Source: a virus
Lineage: Duplodnaviria > Caudoviricetes
DNA length: 52,940 nucleotides
Direction: 5' to 3' (one strand)
IMG/VR virus record: IMGVR_UViG_3300048587_001100
Span: 1 to 52,940 of that record
Shown: one piece after another, positions 1 through 52,940 of the stretch
How the letters are laid out: every line of letters begins with the position of its first letter
Numbering within the stretch: position 1 is the first letter of the stretch
Position numbers and translations under genes: made by a program
The notes under the pieces: generated by a model
The model's input: the letters and a program-made list of their open reading frames with translations, nothing else
Told to the model about the DNA's origin: nothing
Databases searched by the model: none

Positions 1-2097
1 TCAGGCCTCAGTCGTCTTTGTCTGAGGCTCATCAGGGGTAGCCAAAAGAGAACGATCGACTTGACCCATGGAATCGCTCGGAGGGGTTGCGTCGGCCAAC
101 GACCCCATGACACACCCTGCGTCACCGTTCGCAGCAGCAATCTCGGATGTGGACGCCTTAACTGATTCGAGCCCAGCAAACATCACCGGGGCCTCAATGG
201 GCCTGCTCAATACCTCCGTGACTTCGGGGTCGGGCTGTGGCTCCACGGACGAGAGCTTGCGATGCAGATTGAACGTTCGTCCATGGGCACGACGTAGGAT
301 TGTGTTGTAATCGAGGGGTGTGATCTTTATGTTTGTGCCTATTGCCGTCTCAATGGCGGTGCGTCCAACGGTGCTGCCTAATACATACACCGCGAATTCA
401 GTGTCCTTCATCACCGCGTTGCCGGCTTGAAGCTCGAGCGGATAGCGTTGCCCCTGAACAACCTCGTCATGCGTCAATTGAGAGCCCCCGCGCTTTAGCT
501 CGATTACGAGGACTTTTCTGACTCCGATGACCTCTCCATCCTCGAACTGGTCGGCAGCGTAGACGCTCACTGAGCGATCAGGCAGGACCACGAAATCAGC
601 CCTACGAACACTCAGTTCGGCATCTGTTCCACCTAAAAGTTGGCCGACCGTTGTCGCCATCTGCCTGTTTGAGGTGAACTCGACGGAATCATACTCCGGG
701 CCGAAGATCCATAGTCCCCGCCCAAACAGCGGTTGAAGTTGGTGAAGCTCGTCCGTCTTCCTGTCGTTTACGAGTTCCTGGAGCTCAGCAATCAGATCAA
801 GGCGTCGTTTCAGTTCGGAAAGGACCACCTCCGCAGCGGAGGCAGTCCATTGTTCCATGATCTGGTTCCATGTATCGAGGTCTTCGGGTGACGCGGCGGC
901 GAGCTTGTGCAGGAGGTCGTAGCCGGTCCGAGCCTTCTCCATTTTCGTGAAGACGTCGACGGTCTTTGTCAACTCAGCATCAGTGAGTAGCGGGCAACTG
1001 CGCTGCACTTGGTCGACAAAATCACCGATGGCCCGTTGAGAAATGCGCGGGAGTTCCTCTAGGGCCTGCCGCTGCTGACTGAGGGCCTCAATCTTCCTCT
1101 CGCGTCTGGAGTCTGCGAGAATGCCATCGAGTTCCCTCGTTACGTGGTCGTGGACTGCATGTTGAACGGCTATGCTTCTGTGGCTCTCGTAGAAGCCCGT
1201 CCAATCGGGTTTCACATCTAGCTTTAGAACATCGGCCTCGACGATGAAACTGTATCGTTTTGCGGCTTGGGTGCGGCCATCGAGGATGGCACCGCGCTCG
1301 CTAAATCCTTCCCACGATGGCTGACCGACCATCTTTTTATTCACCCACCAAGTGACGCCACGCAACTTGATCGTCCGATCTTGGGATGGCGCATCAATGC
1401 GGTGGACGACAATGTTGCCAATATCCGGTACCGTCACCGCCTTCGAAGTTGCATAATGCAAGCCGATGAGTTGCAGCGGTTTCTTGTTGAAGGTCACTGA
1501 GAACGATGGGTCAACAATGAACTTTGAGCCTATCGCATCCACCAACGTCTCCTCTGCAAGGAGGTGACGTCGAACGGATCCAAAGACTCTGGTGCCGTGC
1601 CCGGGCTTGGCACTAGATTCGATCTGGGTAAAACGGAACGGAGCGTGGTGGTCACTGGTCAGATCAACGCGGGCAGTTATGCTCTTGCCCTCGCGCCACG
1701 TTTCTACATGGTACACGCTGTCGAAGCAGAAGGCAGAATGTCGACCCTTACCACTTTGGCCGAAGGCGGTGCGGGTTCCTTTGGCCCGATTGCCTTTCGG
1801 GATTTCGACCCGCGATCCTTGTTCGGCCAGCCGATTGTAAGAGAGGGTCCGCCAACGGCGTGCGAATTGATCTGGTGTCATGCCTTCGCCGTTGTCGCGG
1901 ACCTCGAAAGCTCCTCCATGTTCGGCTGGCCATTGAACGTGGACATCGGTGGCACCCGCGTCATAAGCATTGGCGACGAGCTCTACAATAGCGATTTTGG
2001 GATCACTGATCAGTTGGCCAGCGTGATCGGCCATGAAGTGCTGGCCGAACGCGAACGAGTCGTCTGAAAACAATCCCGTTTTCTGCTTCTCCGTCAC
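1..2097 (-). CDS. GHKL (HSP90/MORC-like) ATPase fused to a C-terminal PD-(D/E)XK nuclease-like domain; candidate defence protein
   Basis: GHKL motifs ELVANAYDA (N box), DNGEGM (G1), FGQSGKG (G2), HGT (G3). C-terminal RADFVV...VLVIELKRGG...QRY fits a restriction-endonuclease-like D...ExK. Visibly more AT-rich than the phage genes. Confidence 0.75.
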   Translation of the reverse strand: MTEKQKTGLFSDDSFAFGQHFMADHAGQLISDPKIAIVELVANAYDAGATDVHVQWPAEHGGAFEVRDNGEGMTPDQFARRWRTLSYNRLAEQGSRVEIPKGNRAKGTRTAFGQSGKGRHSAFCFDSVYHVETWREGKSITARVDLTSDHHAPFRFTQIESSAKPGHGTRVFGSVRRHLLAEETLVDAIGSKFIVDPSFSVTFNKKPLQLIGLHYATSKAVTVPDIGNIVVHRIDAPSQDRTIKLRGVTWWVNKKMVGQPSWEGFSERGAILDGRTQAAKRYSFIVEADVLKLDVKPDWTGFYESHRSIAVQHAVHDHVTRELDGILADSRRERKIEALSQQRQALEELPRISQRAIGDFVDQVQRSCPLLTDAELTKTVDVFTKMEKARTGYDLLHKLAAASPEDLDTWNQIMEQWTASAAEVVLSELKRRLDLIAELQELVNDRKTDELHQLQPLFGRGLWIFGPEYDSVEFTSNRQMATTVGQLLGGTDAELSVRRADFVVLPDRSVSVYAADQFEDGEVIGVRKVLVIELKRGGSQLTHDEVVQGQRYPLELQAGNAVMKDTEFAVYVLGSTVGRTAIETAIGTNIKITPLDYNTILRRAHGRTFNLHRKLSSVEPQPDPEVTEVLSRPIEAPVMFAGLESVKASTSEIAAANGDAGCVMGSLADATPPSDSMGQVDRSLLATPDEPQTKTTEA

Positions 2098-2671: not shown

Positions 2672-3613
2672 TCACTCCAGGGCCAGCGGCGTCCAGTCCA
2701 CCAGCGGATCAATCTGGAACTGCAGGATGGCCGGCGGCTCATGGGCCTGTTCCTTGGCGTGCCCCTCCCCATCGAGCGGGTACGGATGGATGGGCAGGGT
2801 GCCGTCGGGCAGGACGATTTTGCGCTGCGCAAAAGTGCCAGGGGTGGTCGAGTTCTCTACCAGTTCATGCCGGCCCCGGTCCTCCAGCGACAGCTTCCAG
2901 CCCCGGATGTTCTTCTGGAGTTCATACGTCACACGCCAATAGCTGACGGTCACCACGCTGCCGGCTTCGGTGGTGTAGGTGGCTTCATGTGGGCCATCGG
3001 CGGTGATGTTCCCCATCCTGAGCGTACCGGGCACGTAGGTGATCCCTCGGATGGTCACGGGGGCGGCGCTGACGGTGCCCTTGTACGCCTCGGCCCCCAG
3101 GTCGTTGTAGTCGGTCTCGTTGCGGGTGATGGTAAGCGTGCCCAGTACCCGCTCACGCTGGGGCTGCTCGTCAAACAGTTCATCGGCGCTGTTGACGATG
3201 GGCTTGCCCTGCCACTCGCCCTGCGCCTCCTCATCCCAATCACCCGGCTGGGGTGAGGTGTCGAAGAACACGGGCTCCGTCACGGCGCTGCCGCCGTAGC
3301 TGTACGTAGGCGGGGCTTCCAGTGGGTTGGTGCCGCTGGCTTGGGTGGAGGTGCCGCCGCTGCTTTCGCTGTACTCGACGGTGACCAGGTAAGTGGTCAG
3401 GTCGTCCTGGTGGCTGGCCGCCTGGATGCTCTTGACCTTCATCGCCGACGCACCGGGGAAGCTGTCGCCGTAGCTGGGCAGGCCCGGTGCCAGGCGGGCG
3501 GTCTCGCTGTTGTCGCCGGCCTGGACCTCCACCACATAGACGCGGGTGGCGGTGAGCTTGCCGTCGGAGATGCCCGACTCCTGACTCTTGATGTTGACCG
3601 ACTGAACTGCCAT
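2672..3613 (-). CDS. Putative distal tail/hub protein
   Basis: 313 aa, T/S/G-rich, coupled (TGATG) to the tape measure gene. Confidence 0.6.
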   Translation of the reverse strand: MAVQSVNIKSQESGISDGKLTATRVYVVEVQAGDNSETARLAPGLPSYGDSFPGASAMKVKSIQAASHQDDLTTYLVTVEYSESSGGTSTQASGTNPLEAPPTYSYGGSAVTEPVFFDTSPQPGDWDEEAQGEWQGKPIVNSADELFDEQPQRERVLGTLTITRNETDYNDLGAEAYKGTVSAAPVTIRGITYVPGTLRMGNITADGPHEATYTTEAGSVVTVSYWRVTYELQKNIRGWKLSLEDRGRHELVENSTTPGTFAQRKIVLPDGTLPIHPYPLDGEGHAKEQAHEPPAILQFQIDPLVDWTPLALE

Positions 3614-5388
3614 CAGATATCCACCTCCTCAGCCGCCGACGAGGCCGGGGCCTGGATCTTCCGTTCGATGACCTCCAGGGACTTGGCCATCCGCTCCTGG
3701 GTCTGCAGTTGCTTCCTGGGCGTGTCGTCCTTCCTGGGCTGGATGCCCCGTGTGGACGCGAAGGCGATCCGCTGGGCCTCGGCGCTGCCGGCGGTGATGA
3801 GCGAGGGCGCGTCGGCCTTGCCGGACTTTTCCAGTTCCTCACGTGCCTGCCGCACCGCCCGGCCGTAGGTGTCCCAGTCAAGCACACCCTCGTTGAGCAT
3901 CTCACCCAACCGCTCGATGGTGGTGTTGTACTTCTCCAGCGGAGTCCTGGTGCTGTCGAAGATGGACTTGGCCTCCGACTGCATGGCCTTCAGGGCCTCC
4001 TGCCGCTGCTGCAGTTGCTCGAGCTGGTCCAGCATGGCGTGGGCGTCGGCAAGCTGCTCAGGTGAGGCCCCCAGCGCCCGCAGGTCGATGAGCATCTTCT
4101 GTCCCTCGCCCATGCCGAAGGTGTCCACCTGCCGCCGCAGGTCGGTGAGGATGTCGCCGATCTTCTTGTGTGCCTCCTCGGCGGCCTTGAGCTTTTGCTC
4201 CCAGTCTTCGGTGGCGGCGGCCACGCCCTGGGTCTTGCTGACGCTGTCGGCTACGGCCTGGGCGGCGTCATGGGCGCCGGCCCGGATGTCGGCGAAGGTC
4301 TTGGCGATGGCGGCGGAGTTGGCACCACTGTTGAACCGGTCCCATGAGGCCTGGGCCTTGCCGGCGGATTCATCGATCGACCGCAGCAGTTCATCGCTCA
4401 TCATGCTGAACGTGTCGGTCCACTCGACGTGAACACCTGGCAGCAGGTTGAGCAGCTTGACCAGGCCCGTGCCGGCCATGTCGATGCTCTTCACCACGCC
4501 CCACACGGCGGCGGTGGCTCCGGACTGGAGCATGTAGAAGCCCGCCCGCAGCAACTCCAGCCAGTCGGCGGCGCTGCCGATCGCCCTGAGCACCCACTCG
4601 AACGCCCCGATGATGCGCGTGCCCACGCCTTCACCGCTGGTGGCCAGTTCCATGAACCTGGTCGATGCCGTGGTGATCCACGGCGCAAGCTGCACCGCGA
4701 TGGTGTTGGCCGCGCCCTGGAACACGGCCTTGGCGCGGCTCATGGCGTCGTTGGCTGCTTCGATCTTGGCGGCGTCCACCCGGCTGATCGACAGGCCCAG
4801 CTTGTCGGCTTCCTCACCTGCGGCGATCAGGCCGACCTTGCCCTGTGAGAGCACGTTGACCATCGCCACGCCTTCTTTTCCGAAGAGTTGGTAGGCCAGG
4901 CGGGCCCGGTCGGTGGCGCTGGGCACCTTGGTGATGGCGTCGGCGATGTCACGGAAGGCTGCATCGGGCGTGGACGACGCTAGGGCTGCGGCATCAAGGC
5001 CAAGCTCGGCAATGGCACCCCGAGCCGATCCGGTGCCCTGTGCGGCGTCGGCGAGGTTGAGGACCATCTTCTGGAGGCTCTTGTCGAATTGTTCGTTCCC
5101 CACGCCGGCCAAGTCGGCGGCGTAGCGCAGGCGGGCCAGGTTGTCGGTGGTGAGGCCCAGCTTGTCGGCCGTCTTGGCCAGGGCGTCGATGGTGCTGTAA
5201 GAGGATTGCACCAGCAGCGCCATGCCGCCCCCGGTCGCGGCGGCGGCGATGGCGGCGCTTAGCCCCACGACCTTGCTCTGAGCGCTCGACACGAACTCCC
5301 CCGTGGCCTTGCGGGCGCGGGCCAGGGCGGCCACATAGGTGGCGGTGTTCAGGGTGAGCTTCGAACTAATTGCCGCGATGGTCGCCAT
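3613..5388 (-). CDS. Tail tape measure protein
   Basis: 591 aa, Ala-rich helical; MATIAAISSKLTLNT start; follows the chaperone pair; C-terminal TRTPLEKYN...DWDTYGRA. Confidence 0.85.
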   Translation of the reverse strand: MATIAAISSKLTLNTATYVAALARARKATGEFVSSAQSKVVGLSAAIAAAATGGGMALLVQSSYSTIDALAKTADKLGLTTDNLARLRYAADLAGVGNEQFDKSLQKMVLNLADAAQGTGSARGAIAELGLDAAALASSTPDAAFRDIADAITKVPSATDRARLAYQLFGKEGVAMVNVLSQGKVGLIAAGEEADKLGLSISRVDAAKIEAANDAMSRAKAVFQGAANTIAVQLAPWITTASTRFMELATSGEGVGTRIIGAFEWVLRAIGSAADWLELLRAGFYMLQSGATAAVWGVVKSIDMAGTGLVKLLNLLPGVHVEWTDTFSMMSDELLRSIDESAGKAQASWDRFNSGANSAAIAKTFADIRAGAHDAAQAVADSVSKTQGVAAATEDWEQKLKAAEEAHKKIGDILTDLRRQVDTFGMGEGQKMLIDLRALGASPEQLADAHAMLDQLEQLQQRQEALKAMQSEAKSIFDSTRTPLEKYNTTIERLGEMLNEGVLDWDTYGRAVRQAREELEKSGKADAPSLITAGSAEAQRIAFASTRGIQPRKDDTPRKQLQTQERMAKSLEVIERKIQAPASSAAEEVDI

Positions 5389-8314: not shown

Positions 8315-9574
8315 TCAGGTGCCGGGGGCCATCTCCAGCACGGCGACGGCCTTGGCATCGGTGAGGCGACCATCGGCACGCTGGGCGATGTAGAAGCCCA
8401 CCTGACGCCGGGTGGCGTAGGCCTCCTCCAGACGACGGACGAACGGGTTGGCCACGAAGCGGACGCGGTAGCGGCTGAAGTCGCCGAAGGCGATGGGCTT
8501 CTTGCCCGCCGCGATGTCATCCATGGCGGGGTTGACCACGTAGTCGTAGCCCAGCACCTGGTTGGGTGACCCGGCACTTCCGGGGGTGAAGATGTAGCGG
8601 TTGTCGCCGTCCTTGAGCTTGCGGATGGCGGCCAAGGTCTGATCGTTGAACTGCCAGCGGCCACCCCGGCGACGGTACGGGGCCGGCACCGAGTGCAGCA
8701 GGTCCAGCAGTTCGTCGTAGGTGATGGCGGTGGCTGATGCGGCGTCCTTGCCGACCGTGGCACCGGTCACGAAGCCCTGGGGCTGGCCGGTGCCGCTGCC
8801 CAGGGTGGTCCGCTTGTTCAGCTTCGCGCCGATACGCTCAGACGCCAGCGCCAGAATCTCAGCGGCGAGATCCACCTCGCTGTCTTGGAGCAGCTCGATC
8901 GGCACGAGCACGACACCGCTGTCGTAGGTGAATGCGCCGAGTTCCTTGTTGCCGAAGTCGGGATCGACATCATCGTCAGCTGGGGCGTTCTCGGCCTGCT
9001 CGTCGCTGCCTTCGTTCGCGGTGTCATCCACGGTCAGCATGCTCATGGGGTTGCCGGTGGCGGTGGTGATGACCCGAGCGCCCGCATCGAGCACGCCCGT
9101 GAAATCACGCAGCGACTTCACCAACTCATTGGAGAAATCGCGGGTGCCGACGACACCGATGCCGGCGGTGGTCAGGGCCCGCTGTTCATCGCCTTCGATG
9201 GGCAGGTGTCCGGTGACCAGGAGACTGCGCTGCTCGGCGTCCAGGCCGGACATGCCGCCCCGCAGGTAGGCGTCAAAGGCCTGGTTGCGGCGCTCGTTCA
9301 GGCGCTGCCGATCGGTTTGCTGTCCGCTGCGGCCGTCCACATCTTCACGGCCGGGCTGCCGCTGGCGCTGCTCGCCCTCCAGCGCCACCATCTGCTCGTA
9401 GCGATCGACCTGGGCCTTGATCGCCTCGGCGCGGGTGTTCAGGTCGTCGAACTTGGCGGACTCTTCGGCGGTGAGGTCGCGCTTGTCGGTCTCCGCCGCC
9501 ACCAGGATGCCCCGCATCTCACGCAGCACGTCGCCGCGTTGCTCGTTCAGTCGCTTGATCTGTTGCCAACTCAT
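8315..9574 (-). CDS. Major capsid protein, HK97 family
   Basis: N-terminal coiled-coil delta domain; GSGTGQPQG, IRKLKDGDNRYIF, IAFGDFS, RADG. Confidence 0.92.
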   Translation of the reverse strand: MSWQQIKRLNEQRGDVLREMRGILVAAETDKRDLTAEESAKFDDLNTRAEAIKAQVDRYEQMVALEGEQRQRQPGREDVDGRSGQQTDRQRLNERRNQAFDAYLRGGMSGLDAEQRSLLVTGHLPIEGDEQRALTTAGIGVVGTRDFSNELVKSLRDFTGVLDAGARVITTATGNPMSMLTVDDTANEGSDEQAENAPADDDVDPDFGNKELGAFTYDSGVVLVPIELLQDSEVDLAAEILALASERIGAKLNKRTTLGSGTGQPQGFVTGATVGKDAASATAITYDELLDLLHSVPAPYRRRGGRWQFNDQTLAAIRKLKDGDNRYIFTPGSAGSPNQVLGYDYVVNPAMDDIAAGKKPIAFGDFSRYRVRFVANPFVRRLEEAYATRRQVGFYIAQRADGRLTDAKAVAVLEMAPGT

Positions 9575-9688
9575 TTGGTTGCTCTTTCGCTTGCTGTTGC
9601 TGTTCAAAGGACGCCAACACTTGGCGTCTCACTCATGGCCCCCGACTGGTCCGCGACAGCGCCGCAGGTCGGATAGTGGCCGGTCTGT

Positions 9689-10340: not shown

Positions 10341-11861
10341 TCAGCAGGTCAGGGCGCGGACAATCTGCTCAGCCCGGCCCGACCCCCACTGGGCCAGCAG
10401 TGCATCCATGGTGCCAGTCTCAAAAGCCTCCACGACGGCGGCACGGGCGTCCTCGCAATGGATGGCTGGGTAATCGTGTCGGTTCAACGGGGCGGCCAGA
10501 ACCTGCTCCACGTGGCCGGCATGGTCGGTGAACCACTCATCCGCCCAGCGCCGGAACCCGGCGGCATCGCCTGCGTGCTTCCTGGCGGCGCGGGCGACGG
10601 CGTTGATTTCTTTCGTGGTGATGGTCCTGGCGGCGTTGAGCAGCAGGGCGCGGGCGGGCTCGTCGTTGCGCTGGGATGCGGGGGCGCTGTTGAGCGGGCT
10701 GAGCACCTCATCCCCGCCGGTGATTGGCGGCAAGCCCTCCAGCTTGCGGGCTTCGTTCACGGTCATGAAGGGCCCGCCGACGGCGGTCTGGTGGGCGGCG
10801 TACCGATCGCGCAGGCTGGCCCGCACCAGGGCGTCGAGGTTGAACCGGATTTGCAGACGCTGCCGCTCGTCCTCGCGCAACAGCTTGCGGTTCAACTCCT
10901 GCTCAATCTTGATCGCCCAGGGCTGGATGGTCTCGGTCCTGAACTCTTCCGTTGCGTGCTCGACATTGTTGTAATGCGCCTGGTCATACAGCCCCAGCTT
11001 GTGGGGTGGGCAGCGGTAGATACCGGCGATCTCCAGCGTCTGGTGCTTTCGACTTTCCAAGGCCTGGGCCTCTTCTGGCGACACACCCATGCGGTGGACC
11101 TTGAGACCCGGCGCGGCGGCGACCTTATGGGCGCCGCCCAGACCGGTGTATTCGGCGCGCCACTTTTCCATGAAGAGGTTGAATGACTCGCGGCTCATGG
11201 GTGGCAGTTCCACCACGGAGCCGATGTTGCAGCCATTTGCGAAGAACCTCGCTGAGAACTGCTCCAGGGCGACCGAGAGCCCGATGGTGTTTCGTGCGAC
11301 TTGGATCGGCGACAGGCCGACGATGCCGTCGAGGGTCACGTTGGGGGTGTGGATGATGTCCTGCGGCCTGAGCGCCTGCCCCGTGCCCGCCAGCCCGGTC
11401 TGGTAGAGCAGGTCGCCGTTGCGGCGCAGGGGTGCGGTAGAGCCGGCCCGGAGCGGGTACAGGCCGATGGGGGTGTAGGTGTCGTCACGCTCAATGAAGG
11501 CGTAGCCGTTGCCCCACAGCAGGAGGTTCATCGCGAAGGCCTCCACGAACACCGCCGGGGTCATGTACGGGTTGGGTGAATCGAGCAGCGCCCGCACCGG
11601 GTGGTCATAGACCTTGCCCCCGTCGCGGCGGTCGATGATGTGGATCGGCAACGAGGCCAGGGCGTTGGCGATGACCGTCACGCAGGAGTACACCGCACGA
11701 CAGGCGAGGGCTGACTCGTGCGTGATGTTGACGCCCGCATCCGAGGGGCCCGCGACGTAGGGCCCGAACAGGGTCAACGGCGACAGCAGCAGATCGCCGC
11801 TGCGGTGCTCGACCGGGGCGGGTGGTGCGGAGCGACGAAATAGACTGGCAATGAATCCCAT
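10341..11861 (-). CDS. Portal protein, HK97 family
   Basis: AVYSCVTVIA, LLLWGNGY, GLSPIQ, IAGIYRCPPH, MTVNEAR; about 100 extra C-terminal residues. Confidence 0.92.
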   Translation of the reverse strand: MGFIASLFRRSAPPAPVEHRSGDLLLSPLTLFGPYVAGPSDAGVNITHESALACRAVYSCVTVIANALASLPIHIIDRRDGGKVYDHPVRALLDSPNPYMTPAVFVEAFAMNLLLWGNGYAFIERDDTYTPIGLYPLRAGSTAPLRRNGDLLYQTGLAGTGQALRPQDIIHTPNVTLDGIVGLSPIQVARNTIGLSVALEQFSARFFANGCNIGSVVELPPMSRESFNLFMEKWRAEYTGLGGAHKVAAAPGLKVHRMGVSPEEAQALESRKHQTLEIAGIYRCPPHKLGLYDQAHYNNVEHATEEFRTETIQPWAIKIEQELNRKLLREDERQRLQIRFNLDALVRASLRDRYAAHQTAVGGPFMTVNEARKLEGLPPITGGDEVLSPLNSAPASQRNDEPARALLLNAARTITTKEINAVARAARKHAGDAAGFRRWADEWFTDHAGHVEQVLAAPLNRHDYPAIHCEDARAAVVEAFETGTMDALLAQWGSGRAEQIVRALTC

Positions 11862-11882: not shown

Positions 11883-13565
11883 TCACACGAACGCGAACGG
11901 GAAATCTTGATAAAAGGTCGGCTCGTCATCCCTGGCCGCGCGGATGTCGTTGCCCAGGGCGAAGCTCAGGGCGTCGATTCCGTCAATCTTGCGTGTGTCC
12001 TTGGGTTTCACCGTCTTGATGAGCCCGTCCGCGTCCTCGTGGACCTCCACGTTGGAGGCCATCCAATTCAAGATTGGGTGATTGCCGTGCCGCAATCGAC
12101 GCTCCAGCACCAGCCGCTCCAGGTGCCGCAGGACTGGATTGGTCATCGTGCGGCGTTGCCAAAACTCAAAGACCGTGAAGCCGTCGCCCTGCAACTGACT
12201 GGCGATCTGCTGAGCAAATTTCGGGTCATAAGCCAGCTCCGTGATCCTGTAACGCTGGCCCAGTTCCACGATGCGCCGGCGGATGTGGTCATAGTCGATG
12301 TAGTCGCCGGGGGTGGTTTCGAGGTAACCATCCTGGACCCACTGGCGATAGGGCACGCCGGCTTTCTTCTCATGGTCCAGCACCGTGTCGGCAGGGATCC
12401 AAAAATACGGCAGCACATCGCGGGTGCCGTCCACGTTGGGGAAGACGAGCACCAGGGCGGTGACGTCGTTGGTGCCCGACAGGTCCAGCCCCGCCCAGCA
12501 CTCCCGCCCCTCGTAGTCGGCGGGGTCGATGTCGGCGGCACACTCGAGCCACCGATCGAAGGGCAGCCATTGCGAGATGCTGCCCACCCATTGGTTCAGG
12601 CGGAACCGGCGGAAGTTGTTTTGCAGGGTAGGTGAGTCTTTGGCCTTCATCGCTTCGGCGCGAACCTCATCCTCCATGATGGTCACGCCCAGTGACGGAT
12701 TCGCGGCACGCCATGCGGCGGGGTCGGTGATGTCGCAGCCGTCCGGTGCGGCGGCGATGCAGGCGAACGTGTAGGGGTCGTCAATGGCACCGCTGATGAT
12801 CTTGGCGGCCCGGTCGTGCAGTTCCCACCCGATGGAGTCGCGGTCCTCGCCGGCGGTCGTGATGGTCATGGTGAGCGGCTGACGACGGGCGGCACCAGCA
12901 TATTGGAGGGTGTTCCAAAGCTGGCGGCTCCGGCCCTTCAAGCGGTGGGCTTCGTCGATGACGATGCCGCTGGCGTTCACGCCGTCGGCGCTGTCACCGT
13001 CACTGGAAAGAGCCTGATAGAAGCCCGACGTGCGATGGACCACCAGGCGCTTGGTGTGCTCCTTGATGTCGATGAGTCGCTGGAGTGCCGGCGACTTGCG
13101 GACCATCTTGGCGGCTTCCTGGAAGATGATGCCCGCCTGGGTGCGGGTGGTGGCGGCGCTGTAGAGCTGGGGCTCGGGCTCACCATCGGCGATGAGCAGG
13201 TAGAGCGTGATCGCGGCGGCGAGGGTGGATTTGGAATTCTTTTTGGCCACCTCGATGTAAGCCTGCCTGAACCGACGCGAACCATCCGCCCGACGCCAGC
13301 CGAAGATGTGACCACACACCTCGCGTTGCCAGGGCATGAGCCTCATGGGGATGGTGCCCGCCGCGTCGGCCTCGGGCGTGGGATGGCTGGGTGCGATGCG
13401 GATGAACCGCTCGCAGAACTGGGCGAACCGATCGGCGGCGGCCTGGTCGAAGTAGCAGCCCGCCAGCAAGGCGCTGTGGTCGATGCGGCCACGCACCCAG
13501 TGCGCCCAGCCTTCGCGACGGGCGCGGGCGAGCGCGGCCTCGAGTTGTCCGGCAGGTGCGATCAT
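11883..13565 (-). CDS. Terminase large subunit
   Basis: LMPWQ adenine motif, Walker A AKKNSKST, Walker B IVIDEAH, ITTAG, nuclease GLDLS...KIDGID. Confidence 0.92.
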   Translation of the reverse strand: MIAPAGQLEAALARARREGWAHWVRGRIDHSALLAGCYFDQAAADRFAQFCERFIRIAPSHPTPEADAAGTIPMRLMPWQREVCGHIFGWRRADGSRRFRQAYIEVAKKNSKSTLAAAITLYLLIADGEPEPQLYSAATTRTQAGIIFQEAAKMVRKSPALQRLIDIKEHTKRLVVHRTSGFYQALSSDGDSADGVNASGIVIDEAHRLKGRSRQLWNTLQYAGAARRQPLTMTITTAGEDRDSIGWELHDRAAKIISGAIDDPYTFACIAAAPDGCDITDPAAWRAANPSLGVTIMEDEVRAEAMKAKDSPTLQNNFRRFRLNQWVGSISQWLPFDRWLECAADIDPADYEGRECWAGLDLSGTNDVTALVLVFPNVDGTRDVLPYFWIPADTVLDHEKKAGVPYRQWVQDGYLETTPGDYIDYDHIRRRIVELGQRYRITELAYDPKFAQQIASQLQGDGFTVFEFWQRRTMTNPVLRHLERLVLERRLRHGNHPILNWMASNVEVHEDADGLIKTVKPKDTRKIDGIDALSFALGNDIRAARDDEPTFYQDFPFAFV

Positions 13566-14035
13566 GATCGAAGAAACTGCTCCAACTCATCGTGTGCGGG
13601 TGTTGGTGCTACGTTGATCCGGCTGCGAGCGGACGGGCACATACCAAAGCCCTGCTCCAGGCGGTATAGCTGGTCGGCGAGTGAACGAGCGATGCTGACG
13701 TAGGGCGACGGCTGCAGGAATTTCACTTTGCCCGACTCGTCGCGGATGGGCACCACCTCGCCCGTGCGCTGGATCATCGCCTCCGCCTGACGCCACCTGA
13801 CCCACAACACGCAGTAGCGGGCCAGGGCGTTACGGTCGATGCGACCGGCCAGCCCGGCGGCGATGAGGCTGGGCACGATGCGCTGCCATTCCTGCTTGGC
13901 TTCCTTGGACATCCAGGTCGGACAGACCGGCTTGCCCTCGGCGGCGGCCTCGTTGATCGGGGCGCGGTCCGGGCGGTAAGTGCCCTCCAGCACCTTGGCC
14001 GCTGTCGGTTTGGGTTGTGGCCCCCGCAGGCCCAT
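13562..14035 (-). CDS. Terminase small subunit, P27 family
   Basis: MGLRGPQPKPTAAKVLEG...CPTWMS...FGMCPSARSRI. Confidence 0.9.
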   Translation of the reverse strand: MGLRGPQPKPTAAKVLEGTYRPDRAPINEAAAEGKPVCPTWMSKEAKQEWQRIVPSLIAAGLAGRIDRNALARYCVLWVRWRQAEAMIQRTGEVVPIRDESGKVKFLQPSPYVSIARSLADQLYRLEQGFGMCPSARSRINVAPTPAHDELEQFLRS

Positions 14036-15102
14036 CAGGCTGCCTCCTGTCGTGACGACATGCCCAGTAGGTTGTCGCGGATGTGTTGCGCGATCGACCG
14101 CATGAGCAGCGGCGGCACGCTGTTGCCGATGCGTCCGACCTGTTGCTCATACGTTCCTACGAACTTGAACTCATCGGGGAACGAGCCGAAGCGGGCGAAC
14201 TCACGCACGGTGAAGCGCCGGCGCTCAGCCCAGTGCATCGCCCCGTGCATGCCCAGCACGCCGTCGTTCTTCCTGATCGTGTTGGCGGGTCTGTCGGGGT
14301 GGAACTTGAGGCAGTTGAACCCAGCAAGTCCGAGGTAAGCGTGCCGGTTCTTGCCCACTGGCACAAGGTGCCAGTCCTTGAAGCTTCCATGCCTTTGACC
14401 TGCGGCCAGGAGCATCGCCACTTCCGCAGGATCATTCACCACATCGGCGATGGCCTCACGCGTCGGGATGACTCGTGACCATGGCTTGGGGTGTGATGGC
14501 TCCACGCCCAGGTCATCACGTACACCGATGAAGATCAAGCGCTCACGGGCCTGGGGGACGCCGAAGTATTTGGCGTTCAGGACGCGGGTGCGGACGCGGT
14601 AGCCGCTGGCCTTTAGCTCGCGAAGGCAGTCGGCGAACACCAGCTTCATCTTGCCGGCGACCATGCCCTTCACGTTTTCCATCACGAGTGCCCTGGGCTT
14701 GAGCCCCCGCAGCAGCCGCACGTAATCGCGGAACAACTGGTTCCGCTGGTCGGCAAAGTCGCGGCGTCCGGCGGTGGAGAAGCCCTGACAGGGTGGTGAG
14801 CCGTCGAAGACGTCAAGCTCACCTGGCTGCAGTCCCGTGCGTGCCAGCACTTCATCCACAGAGAGCTTGGTGATGTCACCAGCAACGTCCACGTCGGGGA
14901 AGTTCGCCTTGAAGGTGTTGATCGCTGCCTCGTCATACTCGACCGCGAACAACTCGCGAAAGCCCGCCATGCTGTACCCAAGAGAAGATCCACCGCACCC
15001 CGCAAAGGTGCTGATCACCGTCAGGGCATTGGCTGCGCGTGGGGCAAGATGAGCCTGCCAAGCTGCGGCAAGGGAGCGTGAGTAGGGAGTTGATTGGATC
15101 AC
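14035..15102 (-). CDS. DNA (cytosine-5)-methyltransferase
   Basis: Motif I FAGCGG, IV GSPPCQGFS, VI ENV, VIII QARER, X GNSV; GTG start overlaps the upstream stop. Confidence 0.92.
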   Translation of the reverse strand: MIQSTPYSRSLAAAWQAHLAPRAANALTVISTFAGCGGSSLGYSMAGFRELFAVEYDEAAINTFKANFPDVDVAGDITKLSVDEVLARTGLQPGELDVFDGSPPCQGFSTAGRRDFADQRNQLFRDYVRLLRGLKPRALVMENVKGMVAGKMKLVFADCLRELKASGYRVRTRVLNAKYFGVPQARERLIFIGVRDDLGVEPSHPKPWSRVIPTREAIADVVNDPAEVAMLLAAGQRHGSFKDWHLVPVGKNRHAYLGLAGFNCLKFHPDRPANTIRKNDGVLGMHGAMHWAERRRFTVREFARFGSFPDEFKFVGTYEQQVGRIGNSVPPLLMRSIAQHIRDNLLGMSSRQEAA

Positions 15103-15656
15103 AGCGGCACCACGCCTCCACAGTGTGGACAGGTCACCGTCTCGACATCGTCGGCGCACGACTCGTCAATCTCTTTGCCTGCCGCGTCGTCGGGCAGTGA
15201 TGGTCGCCCCCGCGCCTCACTGATCAGGGCGGCGATTTCGTCGGGGGTCCAGCCGGTGGCGAAGGCGGCCTCGGCGTTCTCCACCTGCAGTGACTCAAGC
15301 TGGCGGGCCAGGGCCTCACGATCCCACTCGGCCAGTTCCGCCGCGCGGTTATCCGCGATCGCGTAGGCCGTCGCCTCTGCGCCCACCAGGTCGGAGCGGC
15401 TGACGGCGATGTGGGTCCAGCCCAGTTCGCGGGCGGCGGCAAGTGTGCCGTTGCCTGCGATGATCACACCATTAGCGTCGGCAAGAATCGGCCGCTGCTG
15501 ACCGAAGCGCCGCAGGCTCCCCTTGATGGCCTCGAGGTTGCGCACGGGGTGAAGCCGCACGTTCGAAGGGTCAAGGGTCAACCCCTCGATTGGCTCGGCC
15601 AGGCTGCGCAGCGCTGGGCTGATGTGGTTCAGGTTGACGTTTGAGGTTTTGGACAT
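15099..15656 (-). CDS. ParB/Srx N-terminal domain protein with a C-terminal CPxCG knuckle
   Basis: SLRRFGQQRPIL...IIAGNG...IADNR; TCPHCG. Confidence 0.85.
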   Translation of the reverse strand: MSKTSNVNLNHISPALRSLAEPIEGLTLDPSNVRLHPVRNLEAIKGSLRRFGQQRPILADANGVIIAGNGTLAAARELGWTHIAVSRSDLVGAEATAYAIADNRAAELAEWDREALARQLESLQVENAEAAFATGWTPDEIAALISEARGRPSLPDDAAGKEIDESCADDVETVTCPHCGGVVPL

Positions 15657-23218: not shown

Positions 23219-24577
23219 TCATCTGAACTGCTGGCCCAGCCACGCCACCGCCTTGTCGAGAAGGCCCTGATCACCCCTCGTGTAGTGCCGTTCGGCGATT
23301 GTGGTTGGTGCGTGGCCGAGATAGAGCGTCACCACGGCCTTGAAGCCATTCTCTTGCTCCAGCAGGTTGGCCCCTGTCGCGCGCAAGAGTTTGAAGCTCC
23401 CATCGATCCGCACATGCTTATGTTCGGCCTCGCCATTCACCAATTTGTTGACCTTTTCCAGGAGCCGGCGGAAGGCTAGCCGTACCGTGTCCACCTTGGC
23501 AGGGGAGCCATCATCACCAGTCCATTCCCGCACCAGTGGCTCACCATTCTCGGTCAGCAGCGCCAAGTCGCCGCTCGTCTGGGCAAACGTTTTCAATAGC
23601 TTCTTTGTGGCGGGCCAAAGCTGATACGTGACAACCGGCACGCCGGCATGCTTGTGCGTCTTGGATCTCTTCCGGGTGATGGTGCCCGCCTTAATGTCCA
23701 CCTCATCACGCCGGAGGTCTGCCAGATCGCGCTGTGTCATGCCGCAATTCAGAGCGAGCAGGAGATAGAGCCGCATCCGATCCGAGGCGGCATCGAGTAG
23801 CCGCTGAACCTCGTCAATCTCCCAGACGTCGACAGTCTTGGCTGGGACGGTAAAGGTCAGATTGCGGCTGTCGATGTTCCGAGGCAAGCCACACAACTCG
23901 CGCTCCCAAGCCCAGCGGATGAACTGCCGCACCGCACCCAGGGCATCACGAGCGGTGTAGGCACTGATTGCCTTGTCAGCGAGTTGATTTGAAAGCCCGT
24001 CATGGAACTCGGCCAACATGGCGGCGCATATCTCGCTGATGGGGCGGTCGCCCGTGGTACTGCCCTGATCAGGTCGCCAATCACGGAAGCGGTAGAGGTG
24101 TGCCCGCAATGCCGAGCGGCGGGCATGGCTGCGGTCGTCAAGTTTGACCTTCGTGTCGAATCCCGACAGAAACCGCTCGATGTGGGCCTTGATCGTCTGT
24201 GGGCCATCGCTACCCGGCAGCCGGAAGTCAGGATGGTCCTGTACGCCGTGGCTGATCACGATCGCTTCGGCCAGGAGGCGTTGCACCCTGTTGGTCGGGT
24301 CTTGACGAGCACCTTCGACGGCTTCGAGAGCGTCGGCATGCTCATCGCGAATCTTGTCCAGCCGGTTACGCTCGGCTTGTTGATCCTGTTTCGCTTGGCG
24401 GGTGACAAGCTGTCCCTCAATCCGTTCCCAGTCCCGCAGGGCTTCTTCATATGCCTCTCTGTCGGTCTTGTTGACACCGCTGCGGCCGAGGTAAAAGTAG
24501 CGGTCTTTGCCGTCAATCTTCCTTTTCTTGCGCCACTGTCGGCGGGCCTTGTGGTAGGTGAGTTGGACTTGGGTCAT
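23219..24577 (-). CDS. int: Tyrosine recombinase/integrase (element 1)
   Basis: N-terminal arm-binding-like WRKK...YFYLG; LLLALNCGMT, RSKT, FKLLRAT, YLGH, RHY; adjacent to a tRNA att remnant. Confidence 0.88.
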   Translation of the reverse strand: MTQVQLTYHKARRQWRKKRKIDGKDRYFYLGRSGVNKTDREAYEEALRDWERIEGQLVTRQAKQDQQAERNRLDKIRDEHADALEAVEGARQDPTNRVQRLLAEAIVISHGVQDHPDFRLPGSDGPQTIKAHIERFLSGFDTKVKLDDRSHARRSALRAHLYRFRDWRPDQGSTTGDRPISEICAAMLAEFHDGLSNQLADKAISAYTARDALGAVRQFIRWAWERELCGLPRNIDSRNLTFTVPAKTVDVWEIDEVQRLLDAASDRMRLYLLLALNCGMTQRDLADLRRDEVDIKAGTITRKRSKTHKHAGVPVVTYQLWPATKKLLKTFAQTSGDLALLTENGEPLVREWTGDDGSPAKVDTVRLAFRRLLEKVNKLVNGEAEHKHVRIDGSFKLLRATGANLLEQENGFKAVVTLYLGHAPTTIAERHYTRGDQGLLDKAVAWLGQQFR

Positions 24578-24588
24578 GTGAGACCTCC

Positions 24589-24700
24589 TGTACCCCCTCC
24601 AGCAGGCGGCTTTTCTGTACCCCCTGCGGGACGAAGAGGTCTATCTTGTACCCCCTCGTGTACCCCCGGTAAAGCGGAAAGTCGGCAAAAAAGGGGTACA
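24589..24700. repeat. Integrase arm-type binding sites TGTACCCC (four direct, one inverted)
   Basis: TGTACCCCCT at 24589, 24616 and 24647; TGTACCCCCG at 24659; inverted AAGGGGTACA at 24691. Confidence 0.8.
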
Positions 24701-24734
24701 AAACCTCGTTTTTGGCTCAAAAAACGGGGTTGCA

Positions 24735-24781
24735 TTCGTTCGGGACGAAGAGGCCGCAGGTTCAAATCCTGTCACCCCGAC
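24735..24781 (+). pseudogene. 3' fragment of tRNA-Pro(CGG); attachment site (attR-like for element 1, also the junction of element 2)
   Basis: Anticodon arm TTCG-TTCGGGA-CGAA, T arm GCAGG-TTCAAAT-CCTGT, acceptor 3' strand CACCCCG-A-C; no D arm upstream. Confidence 0.9.
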
Positions 24782-26267
24782 TTTGCTTCAAAATAGGCCC
24801 TTCGGCGAGCACGTCGAAGGGCTTTCTCTTTTCAGTGACAAGACTTGTGGCGAACAATGTCTTGTTCAATAAAATCGCGTCCAATAGCGCACGGCGATCG
24901 TCTTTGTTTGAAACGCGCCATCGATCTGCCGCTTCCTGGGCCAAATCGAACGCCTTTACTGCCTGTTCAATTCCAGCCAGTGGCTTGGCCTTGCTGGTCT
25001 GCAACTCGGCGTCCACTCGCTCCATCTCCTGCTTGTGGAGCGTCGTCTTGGCCGTGAGCGTGTTTTTATCCACAGCCCCGGCCAGGTAGGCGTCCAACAG
25101 CCGCTGCTGCATCGACTCCAGGTCGGCCCGTCGCCGGCGGAGGTTCTTGATCCGGTCTTCTCGCAGCCGGACGTCGTCCTTGCAGGAGTCCACCAGCTTG
25201 CTGCGGAACCAAGCCCGGTCCTCTTCGTTGCTGATCCGCAGCGACTGCAGGTCGGTCAGGATGGCCTCTTCCAGTTGTTCTTCGCGCCAGCGGACCGTTG
25301 GGTGGTCCTTGTCGGGGTAGACGCTGGCACAGCGGTAGTAGACGTATTGGCGTTGGACGCCCCTCTTGTTGGCCCGGCGAACGCGTTCGGCGGTGATGCC
25401 GAAGCCACAGTGGCCGCAGACGAACATGTTGGCCGCCAGGTAGTGGTTGACCTTGTTGGTGCGGCGGTTCTTGCGTTTCAGGAGGCGCTGGCAGTGCTCG
25501 TAGGTGGCCTTGTCGACGATTGGCTCGTGCTTGCCCACGAAGTACTCGCCGCGGAACTGGACCAGGCCGGTGTAGTACGGGTTGTTGAGGATGTACGAGA
25601 CGGCGTTGCGGTGGAACCGGGGCTGGCTGGAGCGGTAGACGAAGCCTTCTCGCTCCATCTGGTCGCCGACCTGCTCGAAGGTCATGGTACCCGTGGCGTA
25701 CAACTCGAAGATGCGCCGCACCGCCGTTGTCTTCTCCGGGTGCGGCTGGACCGGTTGGTCGCGGTCGCTGGGCACGTTCATGTAGCCGTAGGCGGCCAGC
25801 CCGGGTGTCCAGCCCTGGCGGACGCGCTCCTCGATGCCCTTGAGCACCTCCTGGCGGAGGTTGTCCGAGTAGTACTGGGCGACGGCGGCCATGATGTTGA
25901 ACGACAGGGCGCCGGCGGCACCGGGCCCGAACTGGTTCTCCACGAAGGCCAGCTTGATGCCGTGGTTGTCCTCGAGCTCCTGCATGCGGACGGCGTCGCG
26001 CATGTTGCGGCAGATGCGGTCGAGCTTGTGGGCCAGGATGATGGCGATCTTGTGCTTGCGGGCGTTGGCGACGACCCACTTGAGCATCTGATTGAACACG
26101 ACGCGTTCAGCGCCGCGCTTAGCCGACTCGGCCACCACGAACTCGCGGACGACGTCCCATTGCTCGCGCTGGGCTTTCTCGCGAGTGATGCGGAGCTGGG
26201 CGTCGATCGAGTAGCCTTCCCGCTGCTCGCGCGACGATACCCGTGCCCAGATGACGCAGTTGGTCAT
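24762..26267 (-). CDS. Large serine recombinase (integrase of element 2)
   Basis: Catalytic WARVSS, KLDRICR; recombinase domain ILNNPYYTG...GKHEPIV; Zn ribbon CGHCG...YYRC; coiled coil; likely start ATG 26267. Confidence 0.92.
   Translation of the reverse strand: MTNCVIWARVSSREQREGYSIDAQLRITREKAQREQWDVVREFVVAESAKRGAERVVFNQMLKWVVANARKHKIAIILAHKLDRICRNMRDAVRMQELEDNHGIKLAFVENQFGPGAAGALSFNIMAAVAQYYSDNLRQEVLKGIEERVRQGWTPGLAAYGYMNVPSDRDQPVQPHPEKTTAVRRIFELYATGTMTFEQVGDQMEREGFVYRSSQPRFHRNAVSYILNNPYYTGLVQFRGEYFVGKHEPIVDKATYEHCQRLLKRKNRRTNKVNHYLAANMFVCGHCGFGITAERVRRANKRGVQRQYVYYRCASVYPDKDHPTVRWREEQLEEAILTDLQSLRISNEEDRAWFRSKLVDSCKDDVRLREDRIKNLRRRRADLESMQQRLLDAYLAGAVDKNTLTAKTTLHKQEMERVDAELQTSKAKPLAGIEQAVKAFDLAQEAADRWRVSNKDDRRALLDAILLNKTLFATSLVTEKRKPFDVLAEGPILKQSRGDRI
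24797..24832 (+). terminator. Terminator-like hairpin downstream of the tRNA 3' end, inside the recombinase CDS (antisense)
   Basis: GCCCTTCGGCG-AGCA-CGTCGAAGGGC followed by TTTCTCTTTT. Confidence 0.7.
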
Positions 26268-26546: not shown

Positions 26547-27101
26547 TCAGGCGTGGTCCCGCTCATCGAAGTTGGGGTCGATCCAGGCCTCGAGGCCGGC
26601 ATCGGCGAAGACGCGTCGGATGCGCAAGATGGCCCGCGAGACGGTGTCGCGGCAGCAGCCCAGCTTGGCGGCGATGTCCTTGACGGTCAGGCCATGGCTC
26701 AGGCCGTCGCAGATGGCGCGGTCGCGTTCCGACAGCCGCTGCATGGCCGCGGCCAGGTCCATGCGCAGATCGACCGGCTCGGGCTGAGAGACGTGGTCGG
26801 GCCAGTTGTGACGGGCTGTGGCGGGCCGGCGCATCTGCTGCAGGTGCTCGATGTGGTTTTCGTATCGGCCCTTGGCTCGGAGGTAGGCGCAGATCTGGCG
26901 ATCGACCACGCTGGTGAGCACGGTGTTGCGTGAGGCGCCGTTGGAGCGGGCGGCGTCGAACTGGAACGCCGCGAGCTTGGGCACGATCTCCTGCTGCAGG
27001 TCATGAATCTCGTCGCTGCTGACGCGAAGCCGGCGAGCACGGCTCACGACGAGTCGCGACACGTTCTGGTCCACGATTCCGGCGTAGCTGTTCACGAGCA
27101 T
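26547..27101 (-). CDS. Sigma-70 (ECF-like) family factor
   Basis: HDLQQE...FDAARSNGASRNT (region 2); LSERDRAIC...GLTVKDIAAKLGCCRDTVSR (region 4). Confidence 0.8.
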   Translation of the reverse strand: MLVNSYAGIVDQNVSRLVVSRARRLRVSSDEIHDLQQEIVPKLAAFQFDAARSNGASRNTVLTSVVDRQICAYLRAKGRYENHIEHLQQMRRPATARHNWPDHVSQPEPVDLRMDLAAAMQRLSERDRAICDGLSHGLTVKDIAAKLGCCRDTVSRAILRIRRVFADAGLEAWIDPNFDERDHA

Positions 27102-27102
27102 G

Positions 27103-27293
27103 GCAGAGCCTTTCGAGTAAAGGGCCGCTGTTCCGTCGAGGCGCACATGCGGACTCGACGTGATGGCGGCCATGCTCTGCGCGGTACTGGGTCATGTATG
27201 TAGGCTCGGCGCTGCGCCGCGAACTTCATCTGCGCCACAGATGCGCCGCATTAGTGGGTCACGCTGCGCAGCGCCCAGCCCATATGTGGCGCA
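27103..27293. promoter_or_regulatory. Divergent control region: structured leader over the sigma RBS plus TGCGCC(A/G)C repeats
   Basis: Nested inverted repeats at 27103-27180; TGCGCCRC at 27213, 27231, 27242 and inverted at 27286. Confidence 0.5.
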
Positions 27294-52538: not shown

Positions 52539-52940
52539 ATGACCGACGCTGTTCTGGACCACCCCGTGATCGAATCCCTGCCTTCGGGCAAGCACATGGT
52601 CGTGGTCGGGCTGTACTGCGGTGACGCCCAGCACACCGACCTGACCGACGCCGGCAGCGCCGAGGGCGAAGCCCTCATCCTGGCCGAGCTGACCAAAGCC
52701 ATCGAAGCGACCAAGCCGATCGTATCCAATCGCCCCGGCAGCCTGATCGCCACCGTCAGTGTCGGTGAGCACGACCAGACCATCGATGTGCACGACTGGA
52801 TCGGCTACGCCGACCTGCAGGTGCAACTCTTCGCCGCCTGGCAGCGCATCGCCCGCACCGCCGCGGTGGCCAACGCCATCGGCGACAAGGCGACGGTCGC
52901 CCCTCACGCGCAGAAGGTGGCCGAGTTCTTTCGCCGCTGA
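52539..52940 (+). CDS. Hypothetical protein
   Basis: GGAGG SD before ATG 52539; 133 aa. Confidence 0.65.
   Translation: MTDAVLDHPVIESLPSGKHMVVVGLYCGDAQHTDLTDAGSAEGEALILAELTKAIEATKPIVSNRPGSLIATVSVGEHDQTIDVHDWIGYADLQVQLFAAWQRIARTAAVANAIGDKATVAPHAQKVAEFFRR

Follow-up and report, generated by a model that had tools for sequence, protein, structure and literature searches.

How does one piece of a transfer RNA (tRNA) gene come to stand between a tyrosine integrase and a serine recombinase? The question is raised by the IMG/VR provirus record IMGVR_UViG_3300048587_001100, which was analysed in its entire length of 52,940 nt (52.9 kb; hereafter the window) and which holds a 3′ fragment of tRNA-Pro(CGG) with an integrase gene of a different class on each side. 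The window is very probably the junction of two unrelated prophages inserted in tandem into one tRNA-Pro(CGG), the tyrosine integrase of prophage 1 (Int1) acting at the anticodon loop and the large serine recombinase (LSR) of prophage 2 at the terminal CCGA of the gene. That a single tRNA-Pro(CGG) serves as the attachment point of a tyrosine and a serine element at different sub-sites had been proposed in a first-pass annotation of this DNA, and the family loci and reconstructions described below agree with it. Tandem insertion as such is what a tRNA hotspot ordinarily brings about; what makes the locus interesting is the serine-integrase family behind it.

The fragment (Table 1) reads TTCG/TTCGGGA/CGAA(G), followed by a short variable region, a T arm of GCAGG-TTCAAAT-CCTGT and then CACCCCG-A. 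Its anticodon CGG lies at 24741-24743, and CCA is not encoded at its 3′ end. The window has a single copy of the 46-mer, and none appeared in 100 shuffles. Of 401 genomes sampled within one planctomycete class, 25 contain it with at most 2 mismatches, 7 of the matches listed being exact. At all 20 loci printed, an intact tRNA-Pro(CGG) has CGGGGTGTAGCTCAGCTTGGTAGAGCGC as its 5′ part and the 46-mer as its 3′ part. When the window is set against these genes, the match starts precisely at 24735, the preceding base being A and not C, and the tRNA ends at 24780. The first-pass annotation was thus right to place the start of tRNA identity in the anticodon stem, next to a tyrosine integrase (PF00589) on the left; of the 47-bp segment that it took to be shared by the two elements (24735-24781), 46 nt are tRNA and 24781 is the first base beyond it. 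Contigs from four other, unrelated public sequencing runs match the window at 24735-24781 only, with tRNA 5′ halves upstream and unrelated sequence downstream. Neither ARAGORN nor Rfam found an intact tRNA in the window. Because Rfam at E <= 1 misses partial tRNAs, the window's own fragment included, fragments were identified by motif and by eye. In terms of attachment (att) sites, with P and P′ for phage and B and B′ for bacterial half-sites, the fragment supplies phage 1 attR with its core plus B′ and, through its last ~21 nt, phage 2 attL with its B half-site.

The LSR gene enters the fragment from the right and ends within it. Its last six codons (SRGDRI) and its TGA stop are encoded by tRNA DNA, as the reverse complement of the acceptor strand and T stem, and the stop (complement of 24762-24764) falls inside the T loop, as expected from the earlier remark that a serine recombinase gene runs into the T arm. 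The protein has a three-domain architecture (PF00239, E 2.7e-21; PF07508, 1.3e-14; PF13408, 4e-08), and the WARVSSREQ motif of its N-terminal resolvase domain is invariant in 40 aligned family members. A protein search returned 1227 homologues at E <= 0.001 among 8000 candidates scored, and those with a named source are almost all Planctomycetota; a scan of viral contigs using the single LSR protein returned no relatives. Among 120 homologues listed, 100 end exactly 21 amino acids past a conserved KPF anchor. The other 20 comprise 5 that read through a tRNA (…IRTxDL…), 9 with other longer tails, 5 that are shorter and 1 without the anchor.

At the DNA level, the analysis covered 54 loci from viral contigs and the best 80 of 304 from genome contigs; with the window included, 94 loci (91 distinct sequences) extend at least 110 nt past the anchor. 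An intact tRNA on the opposite strand was present in 67 of them (Pro-CGG in 29, Pro-GGG in 18, Pro-TGG in 17, Gln-CTG in 2 and Val-TAC in 1). The LSR 3′ end overlaps this tRNA at a fixed distance, the tRNA 3′ end lying at +46 from the anchor in 56 of the 67. Another 13 loci carry a tRNA 3′ fragment, which is broken at the anticodon stem or loop in 7 (including the window) and at the T loop or T stem in 5, and has lost its anticodon loop in 1. Twelve loci have no tRNA and continue the reading frame differently (hereafter P–P′ forms), and the last 2, both distant relatives, show neither a tRNA nor an alternative continuation. The LSR belongs to a large Planctomycetota family that regularly uses the 3′ end of tRNA-Pro.

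The crossover point was located in other genomes. In the complete genome of Planctomicrobium sp. SH661 (G011), the LSR gene overlaps an intact tRNA-Pro(CGG), and the non-tRNA continuation of one P–P′ form (L117) recurs 68 kb upstream on the same strand, with 91% identity over 215 nt. The attL and attR of this prophage and the P–P′ junction of L117 share only AGTCGGGA, that is TCCCGACT in tRNA orientation (8 nt). In attL this core follows the LSR gene on one side, and in attR it follows the foreign tail on the other. A relative, G416, has the attR-side host flank joined directly to a tRNA-Pro(CGG) with the same spacing, and thus represents the empty site. In G015, attL and attR lie 68.4 kb apart and have only CCGA (4 nt) in common. 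No long repeats of the tRNA region were found at the far ends of the LSR prophages of G001 and G010, as expected for a core of 4-8 nt. The two reconstructions and the empty site place the exchange within the last four bases of the tRNA, and not in the T arm, where the first-pass annotation had put the sub-site of the serine enzyme; once the phage has integrated, the LSR frame stays open into the host's tRNA DNA as far as the T-loop TGA, which is why the gene reaches the T arm. By analogy, the LSR of the window would cross over at the corresponding CCGA.

The T arm nevertheless appears to matter, as part of the recognition sequence. A T-loop-type heptamer, [TA]TNG[AG]AC in LSR orientation, stands at +61 from the anchor in 65 of 67 loci with an intact tRNA and in 12 of 13 with a fragment, and at +66 in 10 of 12 P–P′ junctions; an eleventh junction has GTTGAAC at +66, and the twelfth lacks the motif. 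P–P′ junctions hold at most ~16 nt of tRNA-like sequence, with a 5-bp insertion ahead of the T-loop-like motif. For the LI integrase of Listeria, the accessible part of Rutherford et al. (PMC3783163) describes a zinc-ribbon motif that lies 5 bp further out in attP than in attB. The LSR sites share this offset, their outer attB motif being 5 bp nearer the centre than that of attP, and by this likeness the tRNA T loop would be the zinc-ribbon motif of the LSR attB. As the T loop is universal in tRNAs, such recognition would also explain the occasional Gln and Val targets.

Immediately past the tRNA begins the P′ arm of phage 2, which throughout the family encodes …KRKPFDxxAEG… of the LSR. In the window, a terminator scan and folding place a hairpin at 24795-24824, with a T-rich run after it in tRNA orientation. 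The family hairpin has a folding free energy (dG) of <= -8 kcal/mol in 87 of 92 loci, and at least 7 T occur in the next 12 nt in 88 of 92. Judged from sequence, hairpin and T run are a predicted phage-supplied tRNA terminator, 14 nt past the tRNA, that would replace the tRNA's own. A nucleotide-level constraint is apparent from the anchor's Arg codon, which in 81 of 92 loci is AGA although the G+C content is high. T-rich tracts flank the LSR 3′ hairpin in both directions (24795-24845 in the window, and in the family consensus). In the LSR direction the T run often lies ~10 codons short of the stop, and the LSR message might end there without a stop codon.

On the phage genome, the LSR frame extends into the P arm by another 13-47 codons; attP lies within the LSR's own reading frame. 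One tail type (type B) is represented by five copies, all of 41 codons and all ending in Ala, with ratios of nonsynonymous to synonymous polymorphism (pN/pS) of 0.04-0.59. One of the five is an orphan at the attR of G011, and an orphan LSR tail is also found at the attR of G015. The constant 41-codon length and the pN/pS values argue that the tail is a conserved coding part of the phage-form LSR. Integration swaps this phage-encoded tail for six tRNA-encoded residues, leaving a protein that ends in ...GDRI. Several phage-form tails end in LAA, IAA, RAA or NAA and many do not; a C-terminal Ala is present in about half. One might hypothesize from these endings that the tail acts as a degradation tag. 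A word-based search with the tail of P0058 matched P0058 itself only.

On the other side of the fragment, the P arm of prophage 1 attR carries four direct copies of TGTACCCCC (24589, 24616, 24647 and 24659) and one inverted copy (24692-24700), all within 112 bp. All 4 exact copies in the 52.9-kb window fall in the 157 bp between Int1 and the fragment, and they are predicted to be typical arm-type repeats. Between two of them lies a 13-nt copy of the anticodon region, CGGGACGAAGAGG (24627-24639; the other copy is at 24741-24753), a 13-mer with 2 occurrences in the window against 0.18 expected. This copy may be a second core-type site or the relic of an earlier insertion.

Relatives of Int1 were sought in viral contigs with the single protein and with an Int1 alignment, and neither scan found any there. 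An alignment-based scan of metagenome contigs (117 relatives, 80 of them kept) gave 54 loci in which the sequence preceding the integrase start is 250 nt or longer. In 23 of the 54, a T-loop motif in the window's orientation stands 130-450 nt upstream with no intact tRNA, which marks a tRNA 3′ fragment; 5 have an intact tRNA (Pro-CGG in 2, Pro-GGG in 2, Ser in 1). Of the 23 fragments, 18 were printed, and all 18, judged by eye, start in or at the anticodon loop. They derive from Pro-CGG in 5 cases, from Pro-GGG in 2 and from Val or Cys in the remainder, except for one that is unclear. The closest relative among those kept (L211, 42% identity) stands at a tRNA-Pro(CGG) fragment and has the same GTACCCC/GGGGTAC motif in the same place in the arm, a native-looking terminator past the fragment and no LSR. 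The point at which tRNA identity starts in the window, together with the fragment starts of the 18 homologous loci, suggests that Int1 crosses over in the anticodon loop.

The gene content of the window agrees with a junction of this kind. Matches to PHROG profiles reveal two separate sets of terminase, portal and capsid genes, of different families and on opposite strands, one on each side of the tRNA piece; two packaging and head modules of different families imply two prophages, neither of them complete. The left one, prophage 1, is siphovirus-like. The right one has no tail genes, no attR and no P-arm-like site in its part of the window (27422-52940). The window is the whole IMG/VR record, and both of its ends are cut at gene ends, a stop codon beginning at position 1 and another closing at 52940. 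IMG/VR scores the record as one provirus with an estimated completeness of 100%; it is a splice of two partial prophages at the tRNA fragment, and the 100% is the sum of two halves. An exact search of metagenome contigs with the left end of the window gave 0 matches, and a contig of 165,823 nt is recorded as encoding a protein identical to Int1. None of the sequencing runs searched held more than 0.14 of the sampled window words, and no contig of the four runs mentioned above bridges the tRNA/LSR junction under a 31-letter rule; they gave no joints.

Table 1 Coordinates of the features discussed in the text; positions refer to the window unless a locus or genome is named.
Feature	Position	Strand	Remark
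tRNA-Pro(CGG) 3′ fragment, 46 nt	24735-24780	+	anticodon stem through discriminator base
Anticodon stem, 5′ strand	24735-24738	+	
Anticodon loop	24739-24745	+	putative tyrosine integrase crossover (overlap) region
T arm	24756-24772	+	
Acceptor 3′ strand	24773-24779	+	discriminator A at 24780
CCGA	24777-24780	+	putative LSR crossover region, by analogy with G011, G015 and the empty site
P′ arm of phage 2	24781-24836	+	other strand encodes ...EKRKPFDVLAEGP of LSR
LSR, prophage 2	24762-26267	-	501 aa from MTNCVIWARVSS...
Helix-turn-helix (HTH) / sigma-70 region 4-like gene	26547-27173	-	directly upstream of LSR
P arm of prophage 1 attR	24578-24734	+	arm-type repeats (predicted)
Tyrosine integrase Int1, prophage 1	23219-24577	-	PF00589, E 5e-10, profile positions 6-168 of 172
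Prophage 1 body, incomplete	1-23218	-	PHROG matches; gene list by G+C at third codon positions (GC3)
Prophage 1 tail gene	1-2097	-	PHROG
Prophage 1 tape measure	3613-5388	-	PHROG
Prophage 1 major head	8315-9607	-	PHROG
Prophage 1 portal	10341-11861	-	PHROG
Prophage 1 large terminase	11883-13565	-	PHROG
Prophage 1 DNA methyltransferase	14035-15159	-	PHROG
Prophage 2 body, incomplete	27422-52940	+	PHROG matches
Prophage 2 exonuclease	27745	+	
Prophage 2 Sak4-like protein	28692	+	
Prophage 2 helicase	30653	+	
Prophage 2 primase	32778	+	
Prophage 2 ParB-methyltransferase	36596	+	
Prophage 2 large terminase	40081	+	
Prophage 2 protease-capsid fusion	44571	+	
tRNA-like hairpin copies	L067 (G010) 90-730		
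tRNA-like hairpin copies	L008 about 11,520-11,600		
tRNA-like hairpin copies	G015 C40 73,960-74,020		
GIY-YIG-like frame	L067 (G010) about 290-560		
GIY-YIG-like frame	G015 C40 about 73,720-73,968		

The tandem-prophage reading is directly supported by the anatomy of the window, the family-wide overlap of LSR genes with tRNAs, the crossover seen in two other genomes together with the empty site, and the anticodon-loop fragments beside relatives of Int1. That the two phages of the window used exactly these positions is inferred, as would be any order of insertion and any activity. We suggest that Int1 exchanges strands in the anticodon loop, with the arms of the stem as core sites. The prophage's own copy of the tRNA 3′ part would restore the gene at the far, unseen end of prophage 1, and the original 3′ 46 nt would be left beside Int1 as attR, consisting of the P arm with its GTACCCC sites and then the core. 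The LSR would recognize the stretch from the T loop to the 3′ end (~21 bp, about 24760-24782) as a B half-site and cut within CCGA. After integration its frame would run into the tRNA and stop at the T-loop TGA, the phage-encoded tail staying at the other end of the prophage.

The two sub-sites, the anticodon stem-loop (24735-24750) and the LSR half-site, are ~35 bp apart and do not overlap, so either element can leave without destroying the sites of the other, and either order of insertion would yield the identical product. If phage 1 were excised, a rejoined tRNA would again stand before the LSR, which is the usual layout of the family, and convergent transcription of the tRNA against the LSR gene would be restored. 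Excision of phage 2 would return the native downstream sequence to the fragment and the tail to the LSR. A broader account of the family, which we offer tentatively and hold to be possible rather than probable, would join several of its features: the outer motif of attB would be the universal tRNA T loop, the gene-internal attP would act as a protein switch, the tail of the free phage could be a degron or a control of directionality, and recognition of a tRNA half-site would keep an occupied site usable, allowing stacks of serine and tyrosine elements and easy retargeting between tRNAs.

Could the LSR be a mere neighbour, its element attached elsewhere, and the fragment belong to the tyrosine-integrase element alone? 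The window by itself shows no att mark of the LSR, and LSR sites share too little sequence to leave visible repeats. Across the family, however, an intact tRNA stands at constant spacing in 67 of 94 loci, 100 of the 120 listed homologues have an LSR frame that terminates within the tRNA, and two attL/attR pairs could be reconstructed, along with one empty site, which makes this explanation highly improbable. We give just as little credence to its mirror image, in which the 46-nt piece was carried in the attP of the LSR phage, the LSR crosses over at the anticodon loop and the tyrosine integrase is irrelevant. Fragments that start at the anticodon loop do adjoin an LSR in 7 loci, but P–P′ junctions hold no more than the ~16 nt of tRNA-like sequence with its 5-bp insertion, and the common cores of attL and attR are just 8 and 4 nt. 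A tyrosine integrase moreover stands beyond the fragment in 3 of the 6 other anticodon-broken loci (L010, L089 and L101; the remaining 3 have a sulfatase in L124, no Pfam match in L151 and a radical-SAM gene in L014), and relatives of Int1 have such fragments without any LSR, as in L211.

Somewhat less remote, and still unlikely, is that the fragment is a decayed remnant, that prophage 1 is not, or never was, bounded by it, and that Int1 came to lie beside it by chance or rearrangement. The attL of phage 1 is unseen, the second 13-nt copy of the anticodon region hints at earlier events, and scars do exist in the LSR family, as in G015. Decay of this kind fits poorly with arm-type repeats confined to the 157 bp between Int1 and the fragment, with L211, whose tRNA-Pro(CGG) fragment lies at the same spacing and in the same orientation, next to the same arm motif, and with a layout common to 23 of 54 homologous loci. 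Least probable of all, to the point that we regard it as almost negligible, is that both elements act as one unit and are excised or packaged jointly, as the first-pass annotation had considered. They are physically adjacent, and IMG/VR treats the stretch as one complete provirus, but the outer junctions (B–core–P′1, the attL of phage 1, and P2–CCGA–B′, the attR of phage 2) have at most the last few tRNA bases in common and no site that either enzyme could pair: these bases are no tyrosine core, and for the LSR the pairing would be an attL-like site with an attR of a different element. The terminases also differ, the record splicing two partial phages.

Several observations weigh against two prophages sharing one tRNA in the way proposed. 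Neither prophage's outer end is in the record, so that the attL of phage 1 and the attR of phage 2 were never seen, and the window's crossover positions rest on analogy, its LSR being only 53% and 57% identical to those of G011 and G015 over the best tblastn segment. On the tyrosine side, 26 of the 54 Int1-family loci have neither a tRNA fragment nor an intact tRNA within 700 nt, and in a first sample 3 of 9 genome matches lay near an intact tRNA, for Gly and Lys, not Pro. On the serine side, five LSR loci (L083, L102, L110, L149 and L097) have a tRNA broken within the T loop or T stem, of whose 3′ end only ~15-23 nt are left, and in L083 and L102 this remnant borders ordinary host genes (PSP1 and formate-tetrahydrofolate ligase, FTHFS); such remnants may be scars left by other elements, or secondary sites resembling the half-site. 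In G012 (C1 37,400-54,000, on a 657-kb contig), two LSR 3′ ends of the P–P′ form lie 15 kb apart, and no tRNA was found in the first 100 kb. The second of these LSRs lacks residues 1-190 and a third LSR-like gene stands at the contig start; G012 is probably a decayed tandem array.

Large serine integrases of the A118/LI, Bxb1 and phiC31 type, known from phages, share with the LSR family the three-domain architecture and very short common cores, 4-8 nt in the LSR family. Unlike them, the LSR targets the 3′ end of a tRNA and not a protein-coding gene, has its attP inside the integrase frame, so that integration alters its C terminus, uses a P′ arm predicted to double as a tRNA terminator, and has the universal tRNA T loop as its putative outer attB motif. 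For Int-S of Mycobacterium abscessus, the accessible part of the source places all three sites in reading frames, with cores of 5-8 bp (PMC8092301). That tRNA targeting by serine integrases is little documented, as the first-pass annotation held, is in keeping with a survey of Paracoccus, in the available portion of which phage vB_PamS_Pami6, with a predicted tRNA-Met site, is the only such case among 16 serine-recombinase prophages (PMC6536676). Pami6 resembles the LSR phages as a serine-recombinase phage with a tRNA integration site, and differs in the tRNA and in the phylum of the host, a likening made by description; that same portion describes no overlap of gene and tRNA, no sub-site and no family (PMC6536676). 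The word tRNA is absent from the main text of a large LSR survey (PMC10083194). In Prochlorococcus, 27 of 937 tycheposons and cryptic elements carry an LSR, and tRNA targeting is not stated in the part of that report consulted (10.1101/2020.12.28.424599). Outside subscription journals and supplementary files, a literature search found no description of the LSR family or of a gene-internal attP in a serine integrase.

The Int1 side has many counterparts: like the tyrosine integrases that use tRNA anticodon loops, it shows identity starting in the anticodon stem, arm repeats by the core and a displaced 3′ fragment. Sub-location classes of tRNA integration sites reportedly go back to Williams in 2002. 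Where the locus departs from known tandem islands in tRNAs is in the neighbour of this ordinary Int1 side, whose serine enzyme takes a second sub-site within one and the same fragment. The gene-internal attP has a likeness in the integration-dependent immunity of mycobacteriophages, in which integration removes a C-terminal degradation tag: there too, attP lies within a reading frame and integration swaps the C terminus. The interrupted gene in mycobacteriophages is the repressor and the enzyme a tyrosine integrase, whereas here the serine integrase itself is interrupted. An insertion that spares its target is also known from the Ccr recombinases of SCCmec, which are LSRs inserting at the extreme 3′ end of rlmH without inactivating it. 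The LSR family shares this placement at the very end of a conserved housekeeping gene that stays functional; rlmH is a protein gene, SCCmec is not a phage, and we know of no fusion of a recombinase reading frame for SCCmec Ccr. The LAA, IAA, RAA and NAA ends of phage-form LSR tails resemble the XXXAA tags on Int and Rep described in the accessible part of PMC8092301.

Serine integrases are valued in genome engineering; nearly all of the natural targets on record for them are protein-coding genes. The LSR family offers dozens of natural attB/attP pairs that can be read from genomes, at a target conserved across a phylum and not inactivated by insertion, with a site geometry that can be compared with the structural model of attP/attB discrimination. 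Its gene-internal attP raises a testable question, whether integration remodels a serine integrase and thereby changes its stability or directionality. The case also illustrates that, at a tRNA hotspot, a provirus caller can join two half-prophages and report them as a single 'complete' record. Related IMG/VR proviruses are often cut 0-6 nt from the LSR stop, which trims the tRNA away (32 loci, with too little downstream sequence).

Stacked insertions recur elsewhere. In L010, L089 and L101, a P4-like tyrosine integrase is followed by an anticodon-broken fragment of tRNA-Pro(GGG) and then by an LSR, so the arrangement of the window recurs with unrelated tyrosine integrases. Two serine-integrase prophages can also stand in tandem. 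In the metagenome-assembled genome G446, positions 2,484-67,370 of a contig align colinearly to the prophage of G011 (15 blocks, 72-91% identity). At the end of the aligned region stand an LSR and a tRNA-Pro(CGG), and preceding the region is another LSR whose tail is the P arm of the G011-type phage, a layout that implies that an occupied site was used again. We had considered that all P–P′ forms might be the attP of free phages, and rejected this, since at least one of them, L117, is a hybrid in which two tandem LSR prophages meet. For G015, a second such prophage was likewise rejected, only a 34-residue 3′ remnant being present; with a 30-nt tRNA piece, it is the scar of an older insertion.

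Some minor features of these loci were also noted. The HTH / sigma-70 region 4-like gene upstream of the LSR has a counterpart in L043 (9078-9737), so that both loci examined have one, and it is a candidate regulator or directionality factor. The leftmost gene of the window (the prophage 1 tail gene of Table 1) encodes 698 aa matching PHROG 6203, of unknown function, with a G+C content of 56% compared with ~65% for the remainder of phage 1; lowered G+C is common among exchanged tail-fibre genes. At the hotspot, tRNA-like copies in which a short hairpin (for example TCCCGA-TCTTAA-TCGGGA) replaces the anticodon arm stand in tandem beside tRNA-Pro and are not called by ARAGORN, and small GIY-YIG-like frames, recognized by eye from their translation, lie just after or inside tRNA or tRNA-like copies (Table 1). 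Last, the host flank at the attR of G011 opens with a ~490-nt repeat (5,338,199-5,338,690) that has 9 copies in the genome, 8 at 100% and 1 at 96%, and is probably the end of an insertion sequence.

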